Part shown: one piece after another, positions 5,878 to 50,921 of the stretch
Layout of the letters: each line of letters opens with the position of its first letter
Numbering within the stretch: the stretch's first letter is position 1
Assembly (NCBI GenBank): GCA_944390295.1
Contig: CALXPV010000001.1
Span: forward strand, 1 to 51,002
From: an uncultured Clostridia bacterium
GTDB lineage: Bacteria > Bacillota > Clostridia > TANB77 > CAG-508
Direction of reading: 5' to 3'
Length of the DNA: 51,002 bases
Made by a program: the position numbers and the translations under genes
The notes under the pieces: generated by a model
Seen by the model: the letters and a program-made list of their open reading frames with translations, nothing else
What the model was told of the DNA's origin: nothing
Database searches by the model: none

Positions 5878-8364
5878 ATGTTTCAAAATATAAATGTAGA
5901 TACGGGCTACATAGACGAAAATGAAATTAAGACAAAAAGAATAAAACAAAAATTTATTAAAGAAAATCTATCTAAGCAGAATATTATACTGTATTTGATA
6001 TCGTTTATGGTATCAACAGTTCAATTTGGAAATGGATTAGCACCATTTGCTATTGCAATTATTGCAGCAATGCTTAGTAATAATATACCAATAATAATTA
6101 CATATTTACTTACGTGTATAGGAACTTTTATAGGATTTGGAGGATCTGGTTTACTTATATATATATTAACTAGTTTAATATTAGTAGCCTTTTCAATATT
6201 CTTAACACCAAAAATTGATGAAAGTACAAATCAAAAGAATTTAACTCCACATTTAATTGTTTCATGTTTTATAGTACAAGTTTTAAAAATAATGATGGGA
6301 CCAGTATTAATTTATGATGTATTACTTGCTGTTGTATATACAATAGTAACAGTTATATTTTATAAAATATTTTTAAGTTCTGTTTTAGTAATAAAAGAAT
6401 CTAAAATAAAAAAAGCTTTTTCTATAGAAGAAATAATTGGGACAAGTTTAATGGTTGCTATCGCAGTTTCAGCTTTTAAGGATATAACTATTTTTAATTA
6501 TTCTGTAAGAAACATATTAAGCGTATTTATAGTATTATTTTTAGGCTGGCAAAACGGAATGTTAATTGGAGCTACATCAGGAGTAATAATAGGTTCAGTA
6601 ATTGCCGTAGTTCAAAATGGAGATCCTATCTTAATTGCAGCATTTGCAATATCTGGTATGATTGCAGGACTATTAAATAAGATAGGAAAAATAGGAGTAA
6701 TAATAGGTTTTATATTAGGAACAGTAATATTAACATATGTGGCAAATGGAAATACAGAATCAATAATAATGATACAAGAAATACTAATTGCTTCTATTGG
6801 ATTACTTGCAACACCTAAAAACATAAAAATTAATATAGAAGACATGTTTGATCATTTTAAATATTTACCTAAAGCTCCAACAAATAGATTAGAACCAACT
6901 ACAGATATGGCATATAAATTAAATAATGTTTCGAATGCAATTTCAGAAGTTGCAAAATCTTATAAAGAAGCAGCAGCTACAGTATTGGAAGACGAAGAAA
7001 TTGAAGAAGAAAGAAATAAAGAGATATTCGTTACAGAGCTAGAAAACAATATTGCAGATTTAAAAGATAATGTAATATATGATGATTTAATAAATGAAGA
7101 TTCGCCAATAGTTAATGATATTTTTAAATTCTTAATAGATAAAAATGAAATAAATGTAGAACAACTTATAAAAATATTTGAAAATCATAACAATTATATA
7201 TTGGGATTTGATGATTCAGAATTAAGTAAAAAAATAACAGAAGAAATTGAAAAAATGGTTAAGGCAATAAATTCTTCATATAGAATAAGTAAATTGAATT
7301 TTATTTGGAAAAAGAAAATAATAGAAAATAAAGAAGCAATGGGAACACAATTAGATGGAATTTCAAAAACTATATCAGATATTGCTGAAGGAATAAATAA
7401 AGACTTAGACCAAGAAAATGTAATGACAGAAAAAGAGAAAATAAAAAAATTATTAGAACAAAAAAATATTATTGCAGAAGATATTAATATAAAGAAACAA
7501 AAAAACAATAAGTTAGAAGTTACATTATATGTTAAACCTTGTAATGAATATGAGGATAATAATAGCCTAGAAGTAGAAGAATGCTTAACAGATAAAATAA
7601 GACCAATACTTTCAAAATTTTTTAAACAAGAATTAGATATTCAATTAGTTGATTGTGCAATACAAAATGACAAAGAAATTTGTTATTTTAAATATACAAG
7701 TAAAAATAAATATTCTTTACAAATAGGACTAGCAAAAACTACAAAAAATGGTAGCCCAGTAAGTGGTGATACAAGCTTAAAAATGAAATTACAAGATGGA
7801 AAGCAATTAATTGCTATAAGTGATGGTATGGGATCTGGCCCCAATGCTAGAAAAAGCAGTAGAATTGCTACGCAAATGCTAAAAAGATTATTAGGATCAG
7901 GTTTTAATAAAGAAACATCACTAGATATAATAAATTCTAATATGTGCTTAAATTCAGAAGATGATTCATATGCTACATTAGATATTGCAATATTTGATTT
8001 GTTTGAAGGAAATGTGGAATTTATAAAAAGTGGAGCATCACCAACATATATAAAGAATAGAAAACATGTAGATATAATAAAAAATTTAACATTACCAGCA
8101 GGTATATTAAATGATATAGATTTAAAAATATCTGATAGAGATTTAGAAGAAAATGAAATTCTAGTAATGTGTAGTGATGGAATAATAGAGTCAAATACTG
8201 AATACGAAAATAAAGATTTATGGCTTAAATATTTACTAGAAGAAATGGACACACAAAATCCTCAAAAGATAGCGGACATAATACTTGCAGAATCAATAGA
8301 TAATAATTTTGGAATACCTAAAGACGATATGACTGTTATAGTTTGCAAGTTAGTAAAAAATTAA
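5878..8364 (+). CDS. spoIIE: Stage II sporulation protein E (membrane PP2C phosphatase)
   Basis: 828 aa. The N-terminal third is polytopic. The C-terminal PP2C domain carries SGDT, ISDGMGSG and MCSDGI motifs. Confidence 0.9.
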   Translation: MFQNINVDTGYIDENEIKTKRIKQKFIKENLSKQNIILYLISFMVSTVQFGNGLAPFAIAIIAAMLSNNIPIIITYLLTCIGTFIGFGGSGLLIYILTSLILVAFSIFLTPKIDESTNQKNLTPHLIVSCFIVQVLKIMMGPVLIYDVLLAVVYTIVTVIFYKIFLSSVLVIKESKIKKAFSIEEIIGTSLMVAIAVSAFKDITIFNYSVRNILSVFIVLFLGWQNGMLIGATSGVIIGSVIAVVQNGDPILIAAFAISGMIAGLLNKIGKIGVIIGFILGTVILTYVANGNTESIIMIQEILIASIGLLATPKNIKINIEDMFDHFKYLPKAPTNRLEPTTDMAYKLNNVSNAISEVAKSYKEAAATVLEDEEIEEERNKEIFVTELENNIADLKDNVIYDDLINEDSPIVNDIFKFLIDKNEINVEQLIKIFENHNNYILGFDDSELSKKITEEIEKMVKAINSSYRISKLNFIWKKKIIENKEAMGTQLDGISKTISDIAEGINKDLDQENVMTEKEKIKKLLEQKNIIAEDINIKKQKNNKLEVTLYVKPCNEYEDNNSLEVEECLTDKIRPILSKFFKQELDIQLVDCAIQNDKEICYFKYTSKNKYSLQIGLAKTTKNGSPVSGDTSLKMKLQDGKQLIAISDGMGSGPNARKSSRIATQMLKRLLGSGFNKETSLDIINSNMCLNSEDDSYATLDIAIFDLFEGNVEFIKSGASPTYIKNRKHVDIIKNLTLPAGILNDIDLKISDRDLEENEILVMCSDGIIESNTEYENKDLWLKYLLEEMDTQNPQKIADIILAESIDNNFGIPKDDMTVIVCKLVKN

Positions 8365-41979: not shown

Positions 41980-42011
41980 AAAAGGTAGATTTTTAAAATC
42001 TACCTTTTTTT
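41980..42011 (+). terminator. Rho-independent terminator
   Basis: Stem AAAGGTAGATTTT/AAAATCTACCTTT followed by a T-run. Confidence 0.75.
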
Positions 42012-42061
42012 AATGTATACTATTGAAAAAGATATTATGGTGTGATATAAAATTGTCATTA

Positions 42062-42217
42062 GCAGATGTATCAGTATATGCAAAATTTGTAAGAAAATGA
42101 AGAAAAAAAAGATGAAACACCAAAAAACAGGTGTTGCAAGTTATTTAACAGTAGGCGTAGGAGTTGCAGTTATTTCAACAAATAGCTGTAGTTTATTTAA
42201 GAAAAAGAAATGCTTAA
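42062..42217 (+). pseudogene. Decayed 3' remnant of a paralogue of the 43257-44429 surface-protein gene (frameshifted sorting signal)
   Basis: 42099-42217 aligns by eye almost base-for-base with 44313-44429 (GATGAAAC.CCAAAAA(A)CAGGT.TTGCAAGTTATTTA...GGAGTTGCAGTTATTTC...GTAGTTTATTTAAGAAAAAGAAATGCTTAA). An extra A in the CCAAAAAACAGG run and a second indel break the frame. There is no upstream ORF body. Confidence 0.7.
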
Positions 42218-42275
42218 GTAAAGTGTTAAAATAAAAGGGATAGACTTGCTATATAAGTCTATCCTTAATATTTTG
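42099..42275 (+). repeat. Copy A of a duplicated segment (gene 3' end plus terminator hairpin)
   Basis: See the pseudogene entry. The hairpin GGATAGACTT...AAGTCTATCC (42238-42264) is homologous to GGATAGAC...GTCTATCC at 44493-44516. Confidence 0.7.
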
Positions 42276-42284
42276 GAGAGGATT

Positions 42285-43058
42285 ATGGCAAAACATTTTA
42301 AAGAGAAAGAAAAGAAGCCACATAGATTGCTTCGCATAATTTTAATTATGCTAATTATAATATCTGTTACATACATAATTAAATATTTTATAGATAGAAA
42401 TGCAACAAATCATGAAAGTGACGTGTTAGATTCTATAGAAATTGATGAAAAACAGATAACAGATGATACAACCGAAAGAATGTTACAAATAAAAGAACTT
42501 CAAAAAGAAAATTCGGATATAGTTGGCTGGCTAGAAATAGAAGGAACTAATATAAATTATCCTGTGCTACAAGGTGATGATAATAGTTATTATATGACTC
42601 ATAATTATAAAAGAGAAACAACATCATCAGGCTCATTATTTTTAGATAAAGACTATGATTGGGATATACCAAGCAGTAATTTATTAATTTATGGACATAA
42701 TAATCTAGATGGATTAATGTTTCAAGAATTATTAAAATATGAAGATGAAGATTTTTATAAAGAGCATCCAACATTTAGATTTACAACAGCAGATGAAGAT
42801 TCAGAATATGAGATAATATCTGCATTTAGATCAAAAGTTTATTATAAATCTGAAAAAAATGTATTTAGATATTATTATTTTATAAATGCAGAAAATGAGA
42901 AAGAGTACAATGAATTTGTTGATTCTGCAAAAGAAAACTCACTTTATGATACAGGAAAAACAGCCGAATATGGAGACCAATTAATGACTTTATCTACTTG
43001 TGCATATCATATAGAAGATGGTAGATTTGCAGTGGTGGCAAGGGAAAAAGAAGATTGA
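42285..43058 (+). CDS. srtB: Class B sortase
   Basis: N-terminal TM anchor. DIVGWLEIEGTNINYPVLQGDDNSYYMTH, LIYGHN and the catalytic MTLSTC motif, then a conserved Arg (RFAVVARE). It aligns well by eye with S. aureus SrtB. ATG 42285 follows GGAGAGG; the ORF-track TTG at 42246 lies inside the terminator hairpin. Confidence 0.88.
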   Translation: MAKHFKEKEKKPHRLLRIILIMLIIISVTYIIKYFIDRNATNHESDVLDSIEIDEKQITDDTTERMLQIKELQKENSDIVGWLEIEGTNINYPVLQGDDNSYYMTHNYKRETTSSGSLFLDKDYDWDIPSSNLLIYGHNNLDGLMFQELLKYEDEDFYKEHPTFRFTTADEDSEYEIISAFRSKVYYKSEKNVFRYYYFINAENEKEYNEFVDSAKENSLYDTGKTAEYGDQLMTLSTCAYHIEDGRFAVVAREKED

Positions 43059-43256
43059 TAGAATTTTTGGTAGATAAAAAGTATTTTTTCTAAATCTATT
43101 TTTTTATTGCAAAAAAAATATTGTTATGATATAAAGTTAATAAATAGATAAAAGTTTATGAATAACGAAAGAAAATAATAACTCTTTTCAAAATTTAATT
43201 ATTGGTATTTATATTATATATATAAATATAATTGTGTTGAAAGGGGAGGTGAAAAA

Positions 43257-44429
43257 ATGAGCAAAACACTAAAAATAGCTTTATTTACAGTATTATTAGT
43301 AGCAAGTCTATTATTATTTACTAATGTTAGTAAAGCTGCAACAAAAGATGTTGGAACAGAAGCTGATTTAAGAAGTGCTTTAGCAGATTCAAGTGTAACT
43401 GAAATAACATTAACTGATGATATCACAATGAATGCTCCTATAGAAGTAAATCATACTGTTACTATAAATGGAGATTATCATGATTTAATTGGTTCAGATG
43501 AATGGAATACTAAAGTAGAAAATAAAGAACTTACTGGAAACCAAACAATTTTAACATCTACTGCAGGAACATTAACATTACAAAATATGAGTATAAGTAA
43601 TTCACCAAAATATGGTGTACAAGCTTTTGATGGAAGTGTTGTATTAAGTAATGTTAGCATTAGTGACTGTGGCTTTGGTGGAGTTTTACTTAATGGAGGA
43701 ACTGTTACTGTTAAATATTTACATTTGGGATATAATGGTGCAGCAGCTAACAATGGTATAGAAATAGATCAAGGAACTTCAACAGGAACACCAAAATTAG
43801 TAATGGATGGTTCTATTACAACTAGCCAATCTGAAAATGTAGTTCGTACAGCTGACAATGCTAATTTAAAATCATTTATTGTAGAAAATACAGAGGATTC
43901 AAGTTATAAAGTAGTTATTGCAGATGGACAACTTACTTTAAAAAATAGCCTTAATCAAGTAGTTTCACAAAGTGCTATTACAGATGGAGTAACAGCAGAT
44001 GTAGACCAAGATTCTGATATTGTTTTAACAATTCTTACAGAGGATAATCAAGTTGTTGAATTAGCTTTAGAACCAGGTACAACTGTTTCTAAAGATTATA
44101 TATCAAAATTTGTTTCAGTTCCATCAGGAATGGTAGTTGGAACAATATATAACAGTGATCAAGCATATTATGAATTTGATTTCTCACAACCATTAAATTC
44201 TAATGCTATGGCATATGTAACATTTACAAAAGCTGTTGACGAAGGTAATACACCTGTAGATGACGAAGAAAAAAATGAAGAAGATAAAACTTCAGATGAA
44301 GAAGCTAAATCTGAAGAAGAAAAAGATGAAACTCCAAAAACAGGTATTGCAAGTTATTTAGCAGTAGCACTAGGAGTTGCAGTTATTTCTACAGTAGGTG
44401 TAGTTTATTTAAGAAAAAGAAATGCTTAA
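43257..44429 (+). CDS. Cell-wall-anchored surface protein with a beta-helix-like N-terminal domain and a TPKTG sorting signal
   Basis: Signal peptide ending VSKA. G/N/T/V-rich repeats (SNVSISDCGFGGVLLNGGTVTV) suggest a parallel beta-helix. An acidic E/K/D linker follows. The C-terminus has TPKTG, then a hydrophobic helix, then RKRNA. Confidence 0.8.
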   Translation: MSKTLKIALFTVLLVASLLLFTNVSKAATKDVGTEADLRSALADSSVTEITLTDDITMNAPIEVNHTVTINGDYHDLIGSDEWNTKVENKELTGNQTILTSTAGTLTLQNMSISNSPKYGVQAFDGSVVLSNVSISDCGFGGVLLNGGTVTVKYLHLGYNGAAANNGIEIDQGTSTGTPKLVMDGSITTSQSENVVRTADNANLKSFIVENTEDSSYKVVIADGQLTLKNSLNQVVSQSAITDGVTADVDQDSDIVLTILTEDNQVVELALEPGTTVSKDYISKFVSVPSGMVVGTIYNSDQAYYEFDFSQPLNSNAMAYVTFTKAVDEGNTPVDDEEKNEEDKTSDEEAKSEEEKDETPKTGIASYLAVALGVAVISTVGVVYLRKRNA

Positions 44430-44527
44430 ATTATACATATTAATAATTTTTAAGAAATTAAAAGCTTTTAAAAGCTAAAAGTATAGAATAGAGGATAGAC
44501 TTAATATGGTCTATCCTTAAATTTTGT
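44313..44527 (+). repeat. Copy B (intact) of the duplicated gene 3' end plus terminator hairpin
   Basis: Homologous to 42099-42275. It includes the terminator stem GGATAGAC/GTCTATCC (44493-44516). Confidence 0.7.
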
Positions 44528-44671
44528 AAAAATATTAATATAATACAATGATTTATTAAGTTAAACAATATTAATAAAAACAACAAAAATGGGAAAAATA
44601 TTAGAAAATTTAGACATTTAAAAAAAAGAATGATACAATAGGTAAAACGAAAAAGAAAGGAAGTAGATAAA

Positions 44672-46072
44672 ATGACATATGGTGAAGAGCTAAAAGAGAA
44701 ATTATTTTCTAAAAAAACAAATGGCTGGTTAAAATTATCAGACGAATTAAAGAAGGAAATCTTTGATTACAATGATAACTATATGAAATTTTTAAATGAA
44801 TCAAAAACAGAAAGAGAAATAGTTACAAGTGCTAAAAAAATTGCAGAAGAAAATGGATTCAAAGATATAAACGAAGTAGAACACTTAAATGTAGGAGATA
44901 AAGTATATTATATAAATAAAGAGAAAAGCATGTATTTAGCTGTAATAGGCGAAGAAAAAATGGAAAACGGAGTAAATATAATAGGTTCACATGCAGATTC
45001 TCCTAGACTAGATTTAAAGCCAAATCCAGTATATGAAGATCAAGAATTAGCATATTTTAAAACACATTACTATGGAGGAATTAAAAAATATCAATGGACA
45101 ACAATTCCACTTAGTATACATGGTGTTATAATAAAAGAAAATGGAGAAAAGGTAACAATAAAAATTGGAGAAGATGAGAATGATCCAATTTTTACAATAA
45201 CAGATTTATTACCACATTTAGCAGTAGAACAACAAAATTCTAAGCTAAGAGAAGCTATAAAAGGAAAAGACTTAAATCTATTAGTAGGAAGTATTCCTTT
45301 TGATGAAGATATTTCAGAAAATGTTAAACTAAATTTATTAAATATCTTAAATAAAAAATATGGAATAGTAGAAAAAGACTTTAGTAGTGCAGAACTAGAA
45401 GTAGTTCCAGCATATAAAGCAAGAACACAAGGATTTGACGAAAGCATGGTTGCAGGATATGGTCAAGATGATAAAGTATGTGTATATACATCTTTAACAG
45501 CAATGATGCAACTTAAAAATATTAAGAAAACAGCAGTATGTATAATTGCAGACAAAGAAGAAATTGGAAGTATGGGAAATACAGGTATGCAATCACAAGC
45601 ATTTGATACATTTATGTCATACTTATTAAATAAAACAGGAGAAAACAGAGTAAACTTATTAGAAAAAGTATATTGTAATTCTAAAATGCTTTCAGCAGAT
45701 GTTGATGCAGCAGTAGATCCAATATATGCAAGCGTTTCTGATAAAATGAATGCAGGATATTTAGGATATGGAATTGCACTAAATAAATATACAGGTGCTG
45801 GTGGAAAATACGACGCTTCAGATGCAAATGCAGAATATATTGCAGAAGTAAAAGGCATATTTGATAAAAACAATATTAAATATCAAGTTTCAGAATTAGG
45901 TGAAGTAGATATAGGAGGAGGCGGAACTATTGCATATATCCTAGCAAACAAAGGAATAGATGTAATAGACTGTGGAGTTCCAGTATTATGTATGCATTCA
46001 CCATATGAAGTAACAAGCAAATATGACGTATATACAGCATATAAAGCATATCAAGCATTCTGGAATGCATAG
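44672..46072 (+). CDS. M18-family aminopeptidase
   Basis: 466 aa. GSHADSPRLDLKP, a DKEEIGS-type motif (ADKEEIGSMGNTG) and a C-terminal MHSPYE are typical of M18 aminopeptidases. Confidence 0.82.
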   Translation: MTYGEELKEKLFSKKTNGWLKLSDELKKEIFDYNDNYMKFLNESKTEREIVTSAKKIAEENGFKDINEVEHLNVGDKVYYINKEKSMYLAVIGEEKMENGVNIIGSHADSPRLDLKPNPVYEDQELAYFKTHYYGGIKKYQWTTIPLSIHGVIIKENGEKVTIKIGEDENDPIFTITDLLPHLAVEQQNSKLREAIKGKDLNLLVGSIPFDEDISENVKLNLLNILNKKYGIVEKDFSSAELEVVPAYKARTQGFDESMVAGYGQDDKVCVYTSLTAMMQLKNIKKTAVCIIADKEEIGSMGNTGMQSQAFDTFMSYLLNKTGENRVNLLEKVYCNSKMLSADVDAAVDPIYASVSDKMNAGYLGYGIALNKYTGAGGKYDASDANAEYIAEVKGIFDKNNIKYQVSELGEVDIGGGGTIAYILANKGIDVIDCGVPVLCMHSPYEVTSKYDVYTAYKAYQAFWNA

Positions 46073-46093
46073 AAATTAAATAAAACTAAGAAT

Positions 46094-46131
46094 TTTGAAC
46101 TTTAGGGACGGTCCTTAAAGTTCAAATTTTG
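46094..46131 (+). terminator. Rho-independent terminator
   Basis: Long stem TTTGAACTTTAGGGAC/GTCCTTAAAGTTCAAA followed by TTTT. Confidence 0.75.
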
Positions 46132-46172
46132 CTTTAAACTAATGAACTTTTAGAACTGTACTAAAGTACATC

Positions 46173-46201
46173 TTGAAAAAATAGGCAATATTGTGTATAA
46201 T
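46173..46201 (+). promoter_or_regulatory. Candidate sigma-A promoter of prfA
   Basis: TTGAAA (46173-46178), a 17-nt spacer, then TATAAT (46196-46201). Confidence 0.55.
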
Positions 46202-46235
46202 AGGAAATAGAGTTTATAAAAAAGAGGAGATAAGT

Positions 46236-47297
46236 ATGTTTGATAAGTTAGACGCGGTAGAAGAAAGATATGAGGAATTAACAAGATTAATTAGTGATCC
46301 AGAAGTTATTAGTAATCATTCAGAATGGCAAAAATATGTAAAGGAACATGCAGAATTAACTGACGTTGTAGAAAAATACAGAGAATATAAAAAAGTAGAA
46401 CAAACAATGAAAGAAGCCGAAGAAATGATGCAAGATAAAGAACTTAAAGAACTTGCAGAGGCTGACTACTATTCTGCAAAAGAACAATTACCAAAAATAG
46501 AAGAAGAACTAAAAATGTTATTAGTTCCAAAGGACAAAGACGATGATAAAAACATAATCTGTGAAATAAGAGCAGGTGCTGGAGGAGATGAAGCAGCACT
46601 ATTTGCTGGTACATTGTTTAGAATGTATAGTATGTATGCAGAAAGAAAACATTGGAAATTAGACATATTAAATGAGAATGAAACAGAACTTGGTGGATAT
46701 AAAGAAATTTCATTTATGATAACAGGAAAAGGCGCATATAGTAGATTAAAATATGAAAGTGGTGTACATAGAGTACAAAGAGTTCCAGATACAGAAAGCA
46801 GTGGAAGAATTCATACATCTACAGCAACAGTTGCAGTACTTCCTGTAGTAGAAGATGTTGAAATAGAAATTAACCCTGCAGATATAAGAATGGAAGTATT
46901 TAGAGCTTCAGGAGCAGGTGGACAACATATTAATAAAACATCATCAGCAGTAAGACTTATTCATGAGCCAACAGGAATTGTTGCAGAATGCCAAACAGAA
47001 AGATCACAATTCCAAAACAGAGAATATGCTATGAAAATGCTACGTTCTAGATTATATGAAATAGAAAAAGAAAAGCAAGATAGTGAGCTTGCAAATGAAA
47101 GAAAATCTCAAATAGGAAGTGGAGATAGAAGTGAAAAGATAAGAACTTATAATTACCCACAAGGAAGAATAACAGACCACAGAATTGGACTTAGCATATT
47201 CCAAATGGAAGACTTCTTAAATGGAAATATTGACAATATGATAGATAGTTTAACAGCTGCAGATGTTGCAGAAAAATTAAAAGGTGAAGAAGAATAA
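46236..47297 (+). CDS. prfA: Peptide chain release factor 1
   Basis: GGQ motif ([11 protein letters not shown]) and an RF1-type PxT tripeptide region ([22 protein letters not shown]). ATG 46236 follows the SD AGAGGAG. Confidence 0.92.
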
Positions 47298-47476
47298 GAA
47301 AAGTGGCTTCGCCACATGTACAGATTGCTTCGCAATCGTACAGACATAGGTAACTTAACCTTGTTATATACGTAAAAATCTGGCGATTTTTCCTATACAA
47401 TAAGAAAAGTGGCTTCGCCATATGTACAGATTGCTTCGCAATCGCACAGACATAGGTAACTTAACCTTGTTATATA
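47293..47476 (+). repeat. Two tandem copies of a 78-bp element (47293-47370 and 47399-47476) separated by 28 bp
   Basis: The copies differ at 2 positions (47315 C/T and 47339 T/C). Each carries two hairpins with TTC loops: GTGGC-TTC-GCCAC and GATTGC-TTC-GCAATC. The element is more GC-rich than its surroundings. Copy 1 overlaps the prfA stop codon. Confidence 0.85.
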
Positions 47477-47478
47477 GG

Positions 47479-47513
47479 AAAAAGGACGAAATTTTAAAAA
47501 TTTCGTCCTTTTT
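47479..47513. terminator. Bidirectional terminator between prfA/repeats and the convergent HD gene
   Basis: 17-bp stem AAAAAGGACGAAATTTT/AAAATTTCGTCCTTTTT. Confidence 0.8.
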
Positions 47514-47518
47514 AAAGT

Positions 47519-48427
47519 TTATCTACTTGTTTGAATAGAAGAAATTAATTTTTCTTTTTTTGCCTGTAGTAAGGTGATTTGTGCCTGTAGTTCAGAGGTG
47601 ATTGCGTTTCTTTCACTTTCAGGTTTTGACATCCATTCATCCCAGTTATCTAATTGGTTCTGGTTTACAATTCCTCTTCCTTTAATTATAGGCTTAGGCT
47701 GAAATGTAAGAGAATTTAATTTCTTTTGTGCTTTTGTAATTTCAGAATCTATGCTCTGAAGATCTTTATAAATTCTAGCTTCTGGTAAAAGCGCTAAAAT
47801 TTGATTATATTTATTTAGTCTATTCTGCCTTGTATCCTTTACCTCATCATTTTCTTGTATGACTTCACTTTGAGCAGAAACATCTGCCTTACATAAATCA
47901 ATTAGCATTACTTGGTCTTTTTCTGTTGGAGAATAATCTTCACTTTTCATTTTTTCTAAAATTTTAGAAACTTTACTAACAGTTTTATCATCTATTGCAG
48001 AAATATTTAAAAAATCATCATGATGCTTAATAAAAAAAGAAATTCTTTTTACTTCTGTTTCTGAATACCCCATTTCTTGTAAAATTGGAGTAGCAATGAT
48101 TTCTGATTCTTTTGCATGATTTATAAATGTAGTTTTACCATTTTTATCTTTTGCAACATGAGGTTTACCTACATCATGGAAAAATGCGGCTATTTTTAAA
48201 GTAGTTAAATCTTCTGAAGAGTATTTATCTTTAGGTAAATTATCTAAAACTGATAATGTATGGTCAAATAAATTTAAATGGTGGTTAGGATTATTTTGAT
48301 TATAACCTACCATATTTGCAACATCTGTTCCAAATGATTGCTCAATACTTTCTTTAGAGCTTTTTTGTAAAAAGCTTGTACAATCTGTTCTTTTTAGAAT
48401 AGATTCAAAAACATCTTTACTAATCAT
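47519..48427 (-). CDS. HD-domain phosphohydrolase with a C-terminal coiled-coil extension
   Basis: NHHLNLFDHTLSVL and AAFFHDVGKP (the H...HD signature) lie in the N-terminal approximately 190 aa. The last approximately 100 aa are helical/coiled (ITKAQKKLNS...ELQAQITLLQAKKEKLI). The SD is AAGGAGG. Confidence 0.75.
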   Translation of the reverse strand: MISKDVFESILKRTDCTSFLQKSSKESIEQSFGTDVANMVGYNQNNPNHHLNLFDHTLSVLDNLPKDKYSSEDLTTLKIAAFFHDVGKPHVAKDKNGKTTFINHAKESEIIATPILQEMGYSETEVKRISFFIKHHDDFLNISAIDDKTVSKVSKILEKMKSEDYSPTEKDQVMLIDLCKADVSAQSEVIQENDEVKDTRQNRLNKYNQILALLPEARIYKDLQSIDSEITKAQKKLNSLTFQPKPIIKGRGIVNQNQLDNWDEWMSKPESERNAITSELQAQITLLQAKKEKLISSIQTSR

Positions 48428-48496
48428 AAAATATCCTCCTTATAAATAAAATTATAACATAAAAAAAGCTTGAACAAGCAAAAGACTTTACATAAT

Positions 48497-48525
48497 TTGC
48501 GAAAATGCTGAAAATATGTTATAAT
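48497..48525 (+). promoter_or_regulatory. Near-consensus sigma-A promoter upstream of the orphan gene
   Basis: TTGCGA (48497-48502), a 17-nt spacer, then TATAAT (48520-48525) with a TGt extended -10. Confidence 0.55.
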
Positions 48526-48590
48526 AGATATGATAAGCACAAATTGAATAAAAGTCCTCAAGTCTAACGACGAGGCAGAAAGGGAAAAAA

Positions 48591-49241
48591 ATGACACTTA
48601 ATGAAAAAATGGCAAAAAAAGGTATCAACATCAACGAAGAAAACAGCTGGAACACAATGTGTCATCCGGCAAAAGATGGTGAAACACGTTGGGGACTTAT
48701 CCGGAAAGAGATTCGGATAAAAAGTCCTGCAACATGGGGGACATCCAATGAGGAGTATTCAATTGTAGGTCTTGAGGTTAACACCTGGGACAATACAATT
48801 GGAGTAGTGCATTTGAAGGGAACAATGCCCCTTGCAAAAGAGCTGTTCTGGGCACTTCTTGCGGACCGTGACGTTCGCCGACTGATACGTGAGTATCAGA
48901 AGAAGGAACGCCAGGAAAAGTATAAGATGTGGGACAAAACCGGAATATCTGGTTGTCAAGACATCTTTATGACATTCGGTGAGCAGGTGGGTAACTTCGC
49001 CGTTACCAGAACAATAAAGCTCTGCCACATTTCGTGTTTCGAGCGCCTTAACGAAGGTTTTGGCGACGAGAACGACAGAATGTACATCGGAGATTTTGTC
49101 GAACTCTGTGTGTATCTTGGCCTGACCAAGAACATGAGAGTAAGAGACTTGAGAAAGAAGGCAAAAGTGAAATATCTTTTGCCGAGACTGGCAGAAGAGA
49201 TCGATGACTCCTACGATACAAAGGTGTCGCAGATTCTCTAA
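48591..49241 (+). CDS. Orphan protein (216 aa) of foreign base composition; function unknown
   Basis: The SD AAAGGGA sits 7 nt before the ATG, and the ORF is bounded by a promoter and a terminator. Hand-counted 60-nt lines inside the ORF give 33-55% G+C (48601: 20/60; 48841: 33/60; 49021: 30/60). Flanking genes give 22-32% (50221: 13/60; 47881: 19/60). It uses CGT/CGC/CGA/CGG Arg codons (48868-48900). I recognised no family motif. It has two CH dipeptides (MCHP and LCHISC). Confidence 0.7.
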   Translation: MTLNEKMAKKGININEENSWNTMCHPAKDGETRWGLIRKEIRIKSPATWGTSNEEYSIVGLEVNTWDNTIGVVHLKGTMPLAKELFWALLADRDVRRLIREYQKKERQEKYKMWDKTGISGCQDIFMTFGEQVGNFAVTRTIKLCHISCFERLNEGFGDENDRMYIGDFVELCVYLGLTKNMRVRDLRKKAKVKYLLPRLAEEIDDSYDTKVSQIL

Positions 49242-49247
49242 TGCAAA

Positions 49248-49290
49248 GAAAAACATGGAAACAGTGATGTGTCCATGTTTTTTCTTTTTT
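49248..49290 (+). terminator. Rho-independent terminator of the orphan gene
   Basis: Stem GAAAAACATGGA/TCCATGTTTTTC followed by a T-run, 7 nt after the stop codon. Confidence 0.75.
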
Positions 49291-49364
49291 ACTAAAAATT
49301 TATTTCATAATAATTACTAATATCGAATATAAATAAAACAAAAAAGATATGGGAGTGATTAGTT

Positions 49365-50099
49365 ATTGGAAATATATTAAAAACATTTCTGATAGGAACT
49401 TTTTTTGGAACATTTGGAACCACAATTGGTGGAATTATAGGAGTTAATATTAAAAATAATTCAAATAGATTTTTAGGATTTATATTATCTTTTGCATCTG
49501 GACTTATGATGGCAATAATATGTTTTGATTTAATCCCAGAAGCATTAGAAATATCTAGTATTTTTGCAGTACTACTGGGTATTATATTTGGAATAATTAC
49601 AATGATAATTTGTGATTTAATTGTTCAGGAGAAAATAAATAAAAAAAGCAATATGAAAAGTCTACTAAAAGTTGGAATTGTAGTAAGTATAGGCCTTGCA
49701 CTTCACAATATTCCAGAAGGATTAGCAATAGGAACAGGCTTTCATGCTTCTTTAGAATTAGGATTATCACTTGCAATCACAATAGCACTACATGATATAC
49801 CAGAAGGAATTTCTATGGCAGTTCCTATGAAAAATGGTGGAATGAAAAAATCTAAAATAATAATGTATGTAATAGGTTCTGGACTAACAACCGGAATAGG
49901 TGCTTTAATAGGACATTTTTTAGGTGAGATATCACAAACTGTAATTGCTATATCACTAAGTTTTGCAGCAGGTGCAATGATATATATTGTATCAGGAGAA
50001 CTAATTCCAGAGGCTAATAATATGTATAAGGGCAGAATTATTAGTTTAGGAAATATTTTAGGATTATTACTTGGAATATTTGTGCTTAATATAATTTAG
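49365..50099 (+). CDS. ZIP-family metal transporter (ZupT-like)
   Basis: HNIPEGLAIG and HDIPEGISMA motifs. The ZIP-like N-terminus (IGNILKTFLIGTFFGTFGTTIGG) continues in-frame upstream of the first ATG (49506) back to a stop at 49356. The only well-spaced start after the GGGAG SD is an ATT at 49365, so the 5' end is uncertain. Confidence 0.75.
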   Translation: MGNILKTFLIGTFFGTFGTTIGGIIGVNIKNNSNRFLGFILSFASGLMMAIICFDLIPEALEISSIFAVLLGIIFGIITMIICDLIVQEKINKKSNMKSLLKVGIVVSIGLALHNIPEGLAIGTGFHASLELGLSLAITIALHDIPEGISMAVPMKNGGMKKSKIIMYVIGSGLTTGIGALIGHFLGEISQTVIAISLSFAAGAMIYIVSGELIPEANNMYKGRIISLGNILGLLLGIFVLNII

Positions 50100-50118
50100 A
50101 TATATTATTATATAATAG

Positions 50119-50162
50119 AAAGTGGAAAACATTTAAATAAAAATAATGTTTTCCACTTTTTT
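50119..50162. terminator. Bidirectional terminator
   Basis: 15-bp stem AAAGTGGAAAACATT/AATGTTTTCCACTTT followed by a T-run. It lies between convergent genes. Confidence 0.8.
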
Positions 50163-50189
50163 GAATCGAAATCTGCTTTAAATCATAAA

Positions 50190-50735
50190 TTAATTATTTT
50201 CTTTAAAACTTTTTGCGATTTCATCAAATTCTTCTACATATTTATCTTTATTTTCCATAACTACTTCAAAATCTATGATATAAATATTTTTTTCTGTTTG
50301 AATCCATACAACTTCAGAGTATAAATCTGAAGACAATGTTGAATCATAATAAGTAAAAGTATATTTATAAGATTCAGTATTAGGGATATCTATTTTACTA
50401 GTTTCTGAAATATCTCTAACATTTTCTTTTATAGAAGAAAGTCCTTCTTTTTCTGAATTTATAATTTCTTCCATATTAATGTCTACAGTTTTTTCAAGTT
50501 TTGATGTATATAACATCATTTCATCTTTTAAAGAATACAAATCTAAAATATAACTTGAAGAACCAGATGCAGATTCTTTACAATTAGCACTTCCAGGAAG
50601 AGTTATTGAAAAAGAGTTATCATTAGAAGTAAAAGTAACTGGTGTTACATATTTATAAATAGAAAAACCAGCAAATCCTAATAAAGCAATAAGTAGAATA
50701 ACAACAATAATTATTATAATTTTTTTAGCTTTCAT
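50190..50735 (-). CDS. Hypothetical membrane-anchored protein (about 181 aa)
   Basis: N-terminal TM helix (IIIIIVVILLIALLGFAGFSIY) plus an extracytoplasmic domain. ATG 50735 is 5 nt after GGAGG, and ATG 50747 is an alternative start. Confidence 0.6.
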   Translation of the reverse strand: MKAKKIIIIIVVILLIALLGFAGFSIYKYVTPVTFTSNDNSFSITLPGSANCKESASGSSSYILDLYSLKDEMMLYTSKLEKTVDINMEEIINSEKEGLSSIKENVRDISETSKIDIPNTESYKYTFTYYDSTLSSDLYSEVVWIQTEKNIYIIDFEVVMENKDKYVEEFDEIAKSFKENN

Positions 50736-50921
50736 AATTTCCTCCATCTATAATAGAAATCTATCTAATATTGTAATATAAAAGAAAGTATATTACAACT
50801 AAAAATTTTATAAAATGTATTTGTTTTATGATAATATCACCTTAAAAGTTTAGAAGCGAATATTTCACCTTAAGTGCATAAAAATAGAAAATATAGGCAA
50901 AATAGGAAGGTGGAATATTTA

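Follow-up and report, generated by a model that had tools for sequence, protein, structure and literature searches.

Known systems and the present locus

Atypical G+C content and codon usage are routinely taken as signs of recent horizontal transfer, and the concept of amelioration, with atypical islets serving as markers of such transfer, is said to go back to Lawrence and Ochman. Here we describe a counter-example. It lies in a 51-kb stretch of DNA from an uncultured Clostridia bacterium (contig CALXPV010000001.1, positions 1 to 51,002; hereafter the window), where the open reading frame (ORF) at 48591-49241 encodes a protein of 216 amino acids. We use gene X, or X, as shorthand for this ORF and its homologs, and HD, ZIP, and prfA for its neighbors in the window. 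Like an islet of recent transfer, X has atypical G+C content and codon usage, is inserted between conserved neighbors, and has an empty counterpart site in relatives. Unlike such an islet, it has kept its anomaly (z = 12 for G+C at third codon positions, GC3) while resident through a synonymous divergence (dS) of about 1, has held on to G/C-ending codons far better than the adjacent genes, and has no mobility genes, tRNA, or direct repeats at its borders.

Conjugative elements provide a second comparison. Tn5397 carries TndX, a large serine recombinase. Tn916-like elements are laid out in conjugation, accessory, regulation, and recombination modules, and their cargo includes genes such as tet(M) (PMC7288454). 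A homolog with 66% identity to X similarly lies between conjugation and regulation/recombination modules, differs in composition from the backbone around it, and has its own leader and terminator. X is, however, unlike any resistance determinant or known family, and in the window it stands alone, with no element backbone, as a chromosomal resident across speciation. The MYG1/UPF0160 3'-5' RNA exonucleases (PF03690) are frequent neighbors of X and share its G+C-rich anomaly, but they are neighbors and not relatives, since X has no sequence similarity to them, and in the window an unrelated HD-domain gene stands beside X instead.

The leaders of ermC and aprE are 5' stem-loops that stabilize mRNA or control translation in Firmicute genes. 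X also has a short predicted hairpin, directly 5' of its Shine-Dalgarno (SD) sequence, with a conserved position, compensatory stems, and free loops, but its stem is just 4-6 bp long, neither a leader peptide nor alternative pairing is seen, and one subclade is without it. Set against these systems, X is probably stranded conjugative-element cargo, unusual in its long-maintained compositional anomaly and in a family without relatives of known structure. On balance we favor, as the more probable account, a reading of X as old, domesticated conjugative-element cargo that has been inherited vertically, whose G+C-rich codons are held by fixation bias, and which encodes a putative conflict enzyme.

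An anomaly confined largely to synonymous sites

48591-49241, plus strand: gene X, a predicted soluble 216-amino-acid protein of an unnamed family, recognized by its ORF, composition, purifying selection, and homologs

Gene X has about 44.4-44.6% G+C, and in 651-bp sliding windows (mean 0.266, sd 0.043) the window-wide maximum of 0.45 falls on its ORF. The original prediction, made from the letters alone, had called it a sharp compositional outlier, and this is borne out: 44.4% G+C against 26.6% for the window, and a GC3 of 0.50 against 0.121±0.031 (maximum 0.19) in the 37 other non-overlapping window ORFs of at least 120 amino acids, which amounts to z = 12.1. GC1/GC2/GC3 are 0.48/0.35/0.50, with GC1 and GC2 raised mildly in the same 37-ORF comparison (z = 1.8 and 1.2). 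Because these two positions are only mildly raised, and because the same protein recoded with host codon preferences would come to 29.9% G+C, the anomaly is overwhelmingly synonymous. Arginine is written with CGN in 9 of 15 cases, against about 3% in the host, and none of the 19 leucines uses TTA, which accounts for 70% in the host, CTG, CTC, and CTT being used in its place. The codon preferences first described for this gene thus hold for CGN arginine and for non-TTA leucine; the claimed use of GCC for alanine is weak (GCA 7, GCC 1, GCG 1; 1 of 9).

A conspecific allele in contig L003 (6001-6648) encodes the identical protein with 10 synonymous differences from the window, 7 of which are A/T in the window and G/C in L003.

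An old insertion at the prfA-ZIP junction

46236-47297, plus strand: prfA (peptide chain release factor 1), left flank, its identical conspecific counterpart having PCRF and RF-1 domains

47298-49364, no strand: the whole inserted interval from the prfA stop to the ZIP start, about 2.07 kb, corresponding to 45-170 bp in related contigs

47519-48427, minus strand: HD-domain gene, 302 amino acids, divergent from X, matching PF01966 at 1.8e-7 and, weakly, Cas3-HD and HDIG

49365-50099, plus strand: ZIP-family transporter gene, right flank, placed by translation and by alignment to orthologs with TTG starts

Empty sites were sought by scanning metagenome contigs with the ZIP protein. In four related contigs (L042, L044, L045, and L056), prfA (79-86% amino acid identity) is followed directly by ZIP (58-75%), with neither HD nor X, across a spacer of about 45-170 bp that holds one terminator hairpin. 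It follows that the window carries an insertion of 2.07 kb, from the prfA stop (47297) to the probable ZIP start (49365), and the empty junction of the related contigs agrees with the earlier view that the gene is foreign to its locus. The spacers of filled and empty sites are not alignable, so that the insertion is bounded only by prfA and ZIP. At least 22 contigs, drawn from different samples, encode the identical X protein, and in all of them the genes run sortase ... M18 peptidase, prfA, HD (divergent), X, ZIP. We found no direct or inverted repeats flanking X, and no integrase or transposase within ±6 kb of it in conspecific contigs, the longer ones included, in keeping with the first description, which had seen no integrase, transposase, or target-site duplication there.

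Orthologs of X occupy the same locus in three lineages: that of the window, L009 (93% amino acid identity), and L122-125 (81%). L009 is missing the segment 47302-48471, which holds HD, and keeps X and its promoter; nucleotide identity between the window and L009 is 90.5% in X, 91.8% in ZIP, and 91.5% in the upstream spacer. L122-125 share the HD<>X>ZIP arrangement of the window, with amino acid identities of 81% for HD, 81% for X, and 77% for ZIP. Between the window and L122, dS is 0.93 and the non-synonymous divergence (dN) 0.128 in X, as compared with 0.81 and 0.107 in HD. Across the three lineages the dS of X comes to 0.41, 0.93, and 1.20, in step with HD and ZIP, and GC3 is 0.50-0.52 in all three after dS of about 1. 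X has co-diverged with HD and ZIP since before the three lineages split, and its acquisition is therefore not recent. A dN/dS of 0.10-0.14 indicates purifying selection on the protein; the differences between the window and L009 fall 11/8/43 by codon position (43 of 62 at position 3), in 36 synonymous and 16 non-synonymous codons. X is thus old, domesticated mobile-element cargo and not a recent import.

X entered the tight prfA-ZIP junction, with or beside HD, in an ancestor of at least three lineages, and was afterwards inherited vertically under purifying selection. The HD gene, present in the window and the L122 lineage and absent from L009 (a presence/absence polymorphism), was most simply lost in the L009 lineage. 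Empty site, filled site, HD loss, and the serine-recombinase elements that target the adjacent ZIP gene (below) together let this locus show cargo turning resident.

The stretch 42001-50815 of the window is a mosaic when set against L009, identity being 97.3% on the left-hand side of the HD segment, falling to 92.4% over X and ZIP, and reaching 99.6% in a gene for 181 amino acids (50190-50747), from which we conclude that lineages have recombined around the locus.

Links to conjugative and other mobile elements

Two contigs, L126 and L127, carry X (66% identity) in an integrative and conjugative element (ICE) with the gene order VirB4/TraG-type ATPase, sortase, CHAP, MYG1, a gene for 288 amino acids, X, HTH_16, DUF6870, and two large serine recombinases. 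This homolog occupies the accessory slot in a conjugative element of Tn916/Tn5397-like layout. The ICE backbone has 20-30% G+C, while MYG1 and X inside it each have 47% and are parted by AT-rich spacers. A MYG1-family gene lies just upstream of X in the ICE and at six chromosomal loci, though not in the window, and the MYG1-family genes beside X homologs are themselves G+C-rich islands (G+C 0.43-0.47, GC3 0.33-0.48) in hosts of 26-30% G+C. Our literature search on MYG1 on conjugative elements found nothing. The MYG1/UPF0160 genes beside X homologs are the following:

L126, 3518-4429

L016, 3904-4812

L019, 4739-5647

L020, 6631-7533

L021, 6890-7798

L022, 1550-2455

More distant relatives of X, at 37-39% identity, occur in integrase-bearing elements of 42-46 kb with HicAB, a Cro/C1 repressor, and DUF4317. 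Together with the ICE-borne homolog, these bear out the suggestion that X might be mobile-element cargo. Homologs at 52-66% identity are found in at least seven unrelated neighborhoods in other AT-rich uncultured Clostridia metagenome-assembled genomes (MAGs). One neighborhood recurs near X in four lineages, with a LysR / 160-amino-acid / Csx3-like cluster and GH77, and this recurrence speaks for vertical inheritance within the subclade; the LysR-type neighborhoods, it is suggested, also border integration sites. Mobility genes stand a few kb downstream of some X homologs, a relaxase with MobC/NikA and TnpV in L014 (10405-12645) and an integrase fragment in L029 (8783-9251).

A possible route into the locus comes from two sister-species contigs, L056 (1320-6000) and L052, in which ZIP is split at its HDIPEG-coding motif by an element of about 4.7 kb. 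This element ends in a large serine recombinase of 508 amino acids, 33-35% identical to those of the X-bearing ICE, and its two junctions each bear a copy of a duplicated 14-bp core, ACCAGAAGGTATAT. To judge from these junctions, ZIP looks like an attachment site for serine-recombinase elements; since such elements integrate in the ZIP gene of sister species, this class of recombinase targets the neighborhood. By analogy with the homologs, X would plausibly have been delivered by a serine-recombinase conjugative element of the Tn916/Tn5397 type, with the backbone lost later.

Phages and plasmids offer little by comparison. Searches of curated phage and plasmid records with X and with the L040 relative returned no relatives of X, the superfamily is rare on viral contigs, and a wider scan of viral contigs with a narrower profile of remote members, built because the first alignment was too diverse, returned nothing new. 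An apparent phage link through PHROGs was dropped: 18 families each match one remote relative, and none of 10 closer single-domain members matches.

What may hold the composition of X

The homologs of X in hosts of 25-33% G+C are all G+C-rich, with 34-47% G+C overall and GC3 of 0.29-0.58, and relatives in elements of 44-48% G+C have 40-42%. The highest GC3 in the family, 0.58, belongs to the ICE-borne copy, and chromosomal copies go down to 0.29. Because G+C richness is family-wide and persistent in every AT-rich host examined, composition is no timestamp of arrival here. A parsimony count of third-position changes (16 GC>AT vs 15 AT>GC) was discounted and replaced by a likelihood model and a contrast with the neighboring genes, because parsimony is biased when GC>AT changes run in parallel. 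The non-stationary two-state likelihood model places the equilibrium GC3 of X at 0.59, with an approximate 95% interval of 0.30-0.82. In the neighbor contrast we counted the G/C-ending synonymous sites retained, comparing genes over identical divergences, with the following result:

Window vs L122, HD: 1/17 retained, memory factor -0.01 (95% confidence interval -0.11 to 0.17)

Window vs L122, X: 57/83 retained, memory factor 0.44 (95% confidence interval 0.29 to 0.57), Fisher p 8e-7

Window vs L009, ZIP: 4/23 retained, memory factor 0.15

Window vs L009, X: 74/91 retained, memory factor 0.70, Fisher p 4.5e-10

A/T-ending sites also turned G/C more often, at 17% in X vs 9% in ZIP. Later coalescence of X alleles does not explain the contrast, because third-position divergence is equal (0.18 vs 0.17) and the AT>GC rate is higher in X. 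The synonymous sites of X are under a regime unlike that of the neighbors, one that favors or tolerates G/C. The bias is compositional and not site-specific: in saturated lineages, third-base matches are 11% above a within-amino-acid shuffle (observed/expected 1.11), and a slight surplus appears over the first 20 or so codons. Taken together, with moderate likelihood support, this points to fixation bias and not to the fading signature of an import.

Several observations weigh against the reading we favor. The host equilibrium of 0.12 is rejected for X only at p = 0.02, and it fits if an ancestral GC3 of 0.70 has been decaying in parallel; single-nucleotide polymorphisms (SNPs) of X within the species run 7 GC>AT vs 1 AT>GC; and the family-wide spread of GC3 from 0.29 to 0.58 can be read as stages of decay. 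Selection for A/T-ending codons in host genes, which X escapes, could also underlie the contrast with HD and ZIP, and the composition statistics are drawn from the 51-kb window. At the window locus, moreover, there is no ICE backbone, integrase, or repeat, and no backbone gene adjoins X as it would in an accessory slot, so the vehicle is read from the homologs. Finally, the guess at function is without homology support in PADLOC, Pfam, NCBIfam, and PHROG.

The first three of these points are at home in an account in which X is an old import from a high-G+C donor in slow neutral decay, with no force maintaining its G+C and with the ICE copy and the chromosomal copies standing as members of a decay series. 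The inflation of parsimony AT>GC counts by parallel GC>AT changes also favors it. Under such decay, however, it is difficult to see why HD and ZIP should have turned over nearly all their G/C sites over the same divergences while X keeps most of its own and acquires G/C at A/T sites with roughly double the frequency seen in ZIP. The account also needs an ancestral GC3 of about 0.70, higher than in any family member seen, relatives from hosts of 44-48% G+C among them, and three lineages still stand at 0.50-0.52 after dS of about 1. We regard neutral decay as unlikely, although it is the alternative that survives best. The SNP spectrum itself means that mutational input on X is AT-biased, as expected, and because of that spectrum and an intergenic G+C of 0.25 in the window, a G+C-neutral mutational equilibrium is disfavored as well.

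If fixation bias holds the composition of X, its cause is inferred to be selection on the mRNA or on expression, together with the 5' hairpin. Biased gene conversion with mobile-element copies is possible, and escape from AT-directed silencing or nucleases is a candidate.

The original prediction was of a recent horizontal acquisition of a single gene whose composition had not yet adjusted to the host. The extreme anomaly, the empty site in sister species, and a family borne on mobile elements all speak for it, but the word recent does not stand. Same-locus orthologs of the same composition in three lineages, diverged from one another by dS of 0.41, 0.93, and 1.20 together with HD and ZIP, are in part what had been named in advance as evidence against it, at least 22 contigs of different sample origin carry the identical protein in an unchanged context, and no near-identical copy was found on any element or any curated phage or plasmid. 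This account is largely refuted, and we consider it improbable.

A little less probable again is an origin of X as an ordinary lineage-specific housekeeping or metabolic gene, LysR-regulated for example, that was once picked up by an ICE and that owes its composition to amino-acid and expression constraints. The LysR cluster and GH77 near X in four lineages do suggest a conserved chromosomal neighborhood, selection on X has been purifying over the long term, and the superfamily, seldom seen on viral contigs, has no member among curated phages and plasmids. Against this, X is patchy (found in 9 of 185,579 species representatives), sister species have the site empty, it has at least seven unrelated neighborhoods, some with the relaxase, MobC, and TnpV or the integrase fragment within a few kb, it occupies the cargo slot of an ICE, and its anomaly lies at synonymous sites and so is not explained by amino-acid composition.

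48759-49256, minus strand: antisense ORF of 165 codons, a by-product of G+C-rich codon choice, the sense frame of gene X having no TTA or CTA and one TCA

Although G+C-rich islands in AT-rich genomes are often RNA genes, and although the sense frame avoids TTA, CTA, and TCA and the ICE copy has its whole antisense frame open (216 codons), it is very improbable that the island is mainly a structured RNA or an overlapping antisense gene that forces the composition, given the protein-type substitution pattern of X (position 3 dominant, dN/dS about 0.1), antisense open runs of only 59-70 codons in many homologs, no site-specific synonymous conservation past the first 20 or so codons, and no Rfam match even at E up to 1. 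As a gene, the antisense ORF was rejected because its longest open run ranges from 59 to 216 codons among homologs and is not conserved, which bears out its first description as spurious.

Expression signals and the leader hairpin

48497-48525, plus strand: putative promoter of gene X, with -35 TTGCGA (48497-48502), a 17-nt spacer ending in TG, and -10 TATAAT (48520-48525), an extended -10 promoter (TGTTATAAT), by consensus match and conservation

48556-48575, plus strand: leader hairpin, CCTC-12 nt-GAGG (CAGAAAGG), directly 5' of the SD block, by conserved position and compensatory stems

48577-48584, plus strand: SD sequence AGAAAGGG, 6 nt 5' of the ATG, read off the sequence

49245-49293, plus strand: intrinsic terminator of gene X, a stem at 49245-49287 followed by a T-tract, by folding and conservation

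The interval 48497-49293 is a genuine monocistronic protein-coding unit of promoter, hairpin and SD, 216-codon ORF, and terminator, and the prediction of a self-contained transcription unit holds. The predicted promoter is the best local consensus match (10/12 plus TG), and its hexamers and TG are kept in the L009 (93%) and L122/L124 (81%) orthologs, as would be expected if the TTGCGA-17-TATAAT element originally proposed is real; shuffled sequence yields promoter-like matches at least as often as this AT-rich DNA does. The clean terminator seen at the outset is confirmed with a slight shift, from 49248-49290 to 49245-49287 plus the U-tract. Its folding energy of -17.4 kcal/mol (z = -4.0) is equaled by 0 of 200 shuffles, it is conserved in L009 and L122, and a terminator 3' of X is common to the ICE copy and the chromosomal loci L016 and L019.

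A small hairpin had also been predicted in the leader, at 48567-48586; the hairpin is present, but as the CCTC/GAGG stem at 48556-48575. With anchored extraction of the leaders, a hairpin is found at the same position in 11 of 18 homologs, from 7 deep lineages, in the form AAGTCCTC, loop, GAGG, and then the SD block CAGAAAGGA, which is conserved family-wide. The loops, of 3-12 nt, are unrelated between homologs, and the stems show compensatory changes: L025 has CCACG/TGTGG, L011 has GTCTCA/TGAGAC, and the fifth pair is either T-A or A-T. One subclade is missing the hairpin, and its folding energy alone is not significant (z = 0.06). From this pattern of conservation, it may be an element that stabilizes the mRNA or controls translation. 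A covariation count from a MAFFT alignment of the leader was out of register and was set aside in favor of the anchored extraction.

The covariance models of Rfam 15 gave no match at gathering thresholds in the G+C island or the leader and only chance-level matches at E up to 1, and they found nothing in the long leader of L016. An RNA element embedded in the coding sequence was rejected on the grounds of this result and of the lack of site-specific synonymous constraint. A conserved non-coding segment (TTAGGTGAAAAGATATATCCTAA...CCAACTGCAGTAATT) stands 5' of the leader hairpin in four lineages (L126 at about 5900-5950, L016, L019, and L037), 55-95 nt upstream of the X start; the short leader of the window is without it. 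A candidate stem in this segment covaries (TTAGG/CCTAA vs TTGGG/CCCAA), with no Rfam match.

Protein family and possible function

The X protein had been called an orphan, which is right in that no named family matches it and wrong in that it has many relatives. A word-indexed search gave 82 clusters at E < 0.01, of 48-100% identity and about 205-230 amino acids, none with a Pfam domain, and an exhaustive profile search of 1.84 billion representatives gave 152 clusters at E <= 0.001. The source records hold no protein name for any member, and the hosts are uncultured Clostridia MAGs of 25-30% G+C. The family has neither name nor annotation, and its members come only from uncultured gut Clostridia of very high A+T content and from the mobile elements of these bacteria. 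X itself has no match in Pfam, PHROGs, NCBIfam, or PADLOC v2 (2023 library), nor in the PDB when searched by single sequence and by profile, and a Pfam scan of 57 remote and multi-domain relatives gave one-off, inconsistent matches with no consistent domain. Unannotated neighbors of about 210 amino acids were considered as possible paralogs of X and are not paralogous.

An AlphaFold2 model built from a 58-sequence alignment reached a predicted local distance difference test (pLDDT) of 80.9 and a predicted template modeling score (pTM) of 0.78. Compared by Foldseek with the PDB and BFVD, the model matched no structure with a TM above 0.22 or at E <= 0.001, and no nuclease. With low confidence, the model suggests a soluble alpha/beta protein without a detectable relative of known fold. 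The conserved positions D92, D94, R96, Y102, Q103, W114, D124, H146, S148, N154, E155, D168, and E171 look like an active site or a binding pocket; D92, D94, R96, Y102, D124, H146, S148, N154, D168, and E171 would make up an acidic and polar cluster. A metal-dependent hydrolase or transferase is a candidate reading, and the arrangement H146...N154...D168/E171 may resemble a beta-beta-alpha-metal (HNH-like) or PD-(D/E)xK motif.

No gene is a universal partner of X across its loci; L009 keeps X in the absence of HD, and the window keeps it in the absence of MYG1. The neighbors of X are often nucleic-acid or nucleotide enzymes, among them the HD protein, MYG1-family 3'-5' RNA exonuclease, GIY-YIG, UDG, and NUDIX. 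PADLOC v2 (2023) found no match for X, MYG1, the 288-amino-acid gene, or other neighbors, and HD is only weakly Cas3-HD-like. For the early suggestion of a toxin, immunity, or anti-phage factor, the profile libraries and the structural comparison of X thus gave no match. The MYG1 3'-5' RNA exonuclease is antiviral in yeast (PMC10089162). X does not have the form of a toxin-antitoxin pair, being monocistronic with its own promoter and terminator and having no conserved small partner. Because of its cargo position, purifying selection, strong stand-alone expression signals, and enzyme-like conserved residues, our tentative guess is that X may be a metal-dependent enzyme acting on nucleic acids or nucleotides, for defense or anti-defense in conflict between mobile elements and hosts.

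A broader conjecture, which we think possible but doubtful, is that X and MYG1 would exemplify a class of genes of mobile-element origin in which selection, in extremely AT-rich hosts, acts on the G+C-rich synonymous composition as such, with X as a metal-dependent conflict enzyme of new fold. Such selection might arise from the need for a long-lived, well-expressed mRNA with a 5' hairpin, or from escape from AT-directed silencing or nucleases. If this is true, then a "foreign" composition would be an adaptive, stable trait and not a clock of horizontal transfer. X is in any case a tractable system for asking what keeps synonymous composition off the genome equilibrium, and its family is a candidate source of a new fold and of an activity new to the biology of mobile elements.

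Other features of the locus

The HD gene is host-like in composition (GC3 0.10), and the C-terminal tail of its protein is coiled-coil-like. The HD and MYG1 neighbors, both of 302 amino acids, were compared as possible homologs and are not homologous. On the other side of X, the probable ATT start of ZIP at 49365 aligns with the TTG starts in L042, L045, and L056, and ZIP has either a non-canonical start or is an N-terminally truncated transporter. Gene callers put its start at the ATG at 49509, which would lose the first transmembrane helix.

47293-47483, plus strand: left edge of the insertion, where the prfA 3' end and G+C-rich hairpins are tandemly duplicated with a period of 106 bp and 95% identity

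This duplication has two copies, each of the last 5 nt of prfA plus hairpins (GTGGCTTCGCCAC, GATTGCTTCGCAATC), and is unique within the window; part of it (47343-47406) is inverted in L009 (5783-5720). Two tRNA genes lie at the start of the window, one at 1-72 on the minus strand, cut by the window edge, and one at 190-264 on the plus strand.

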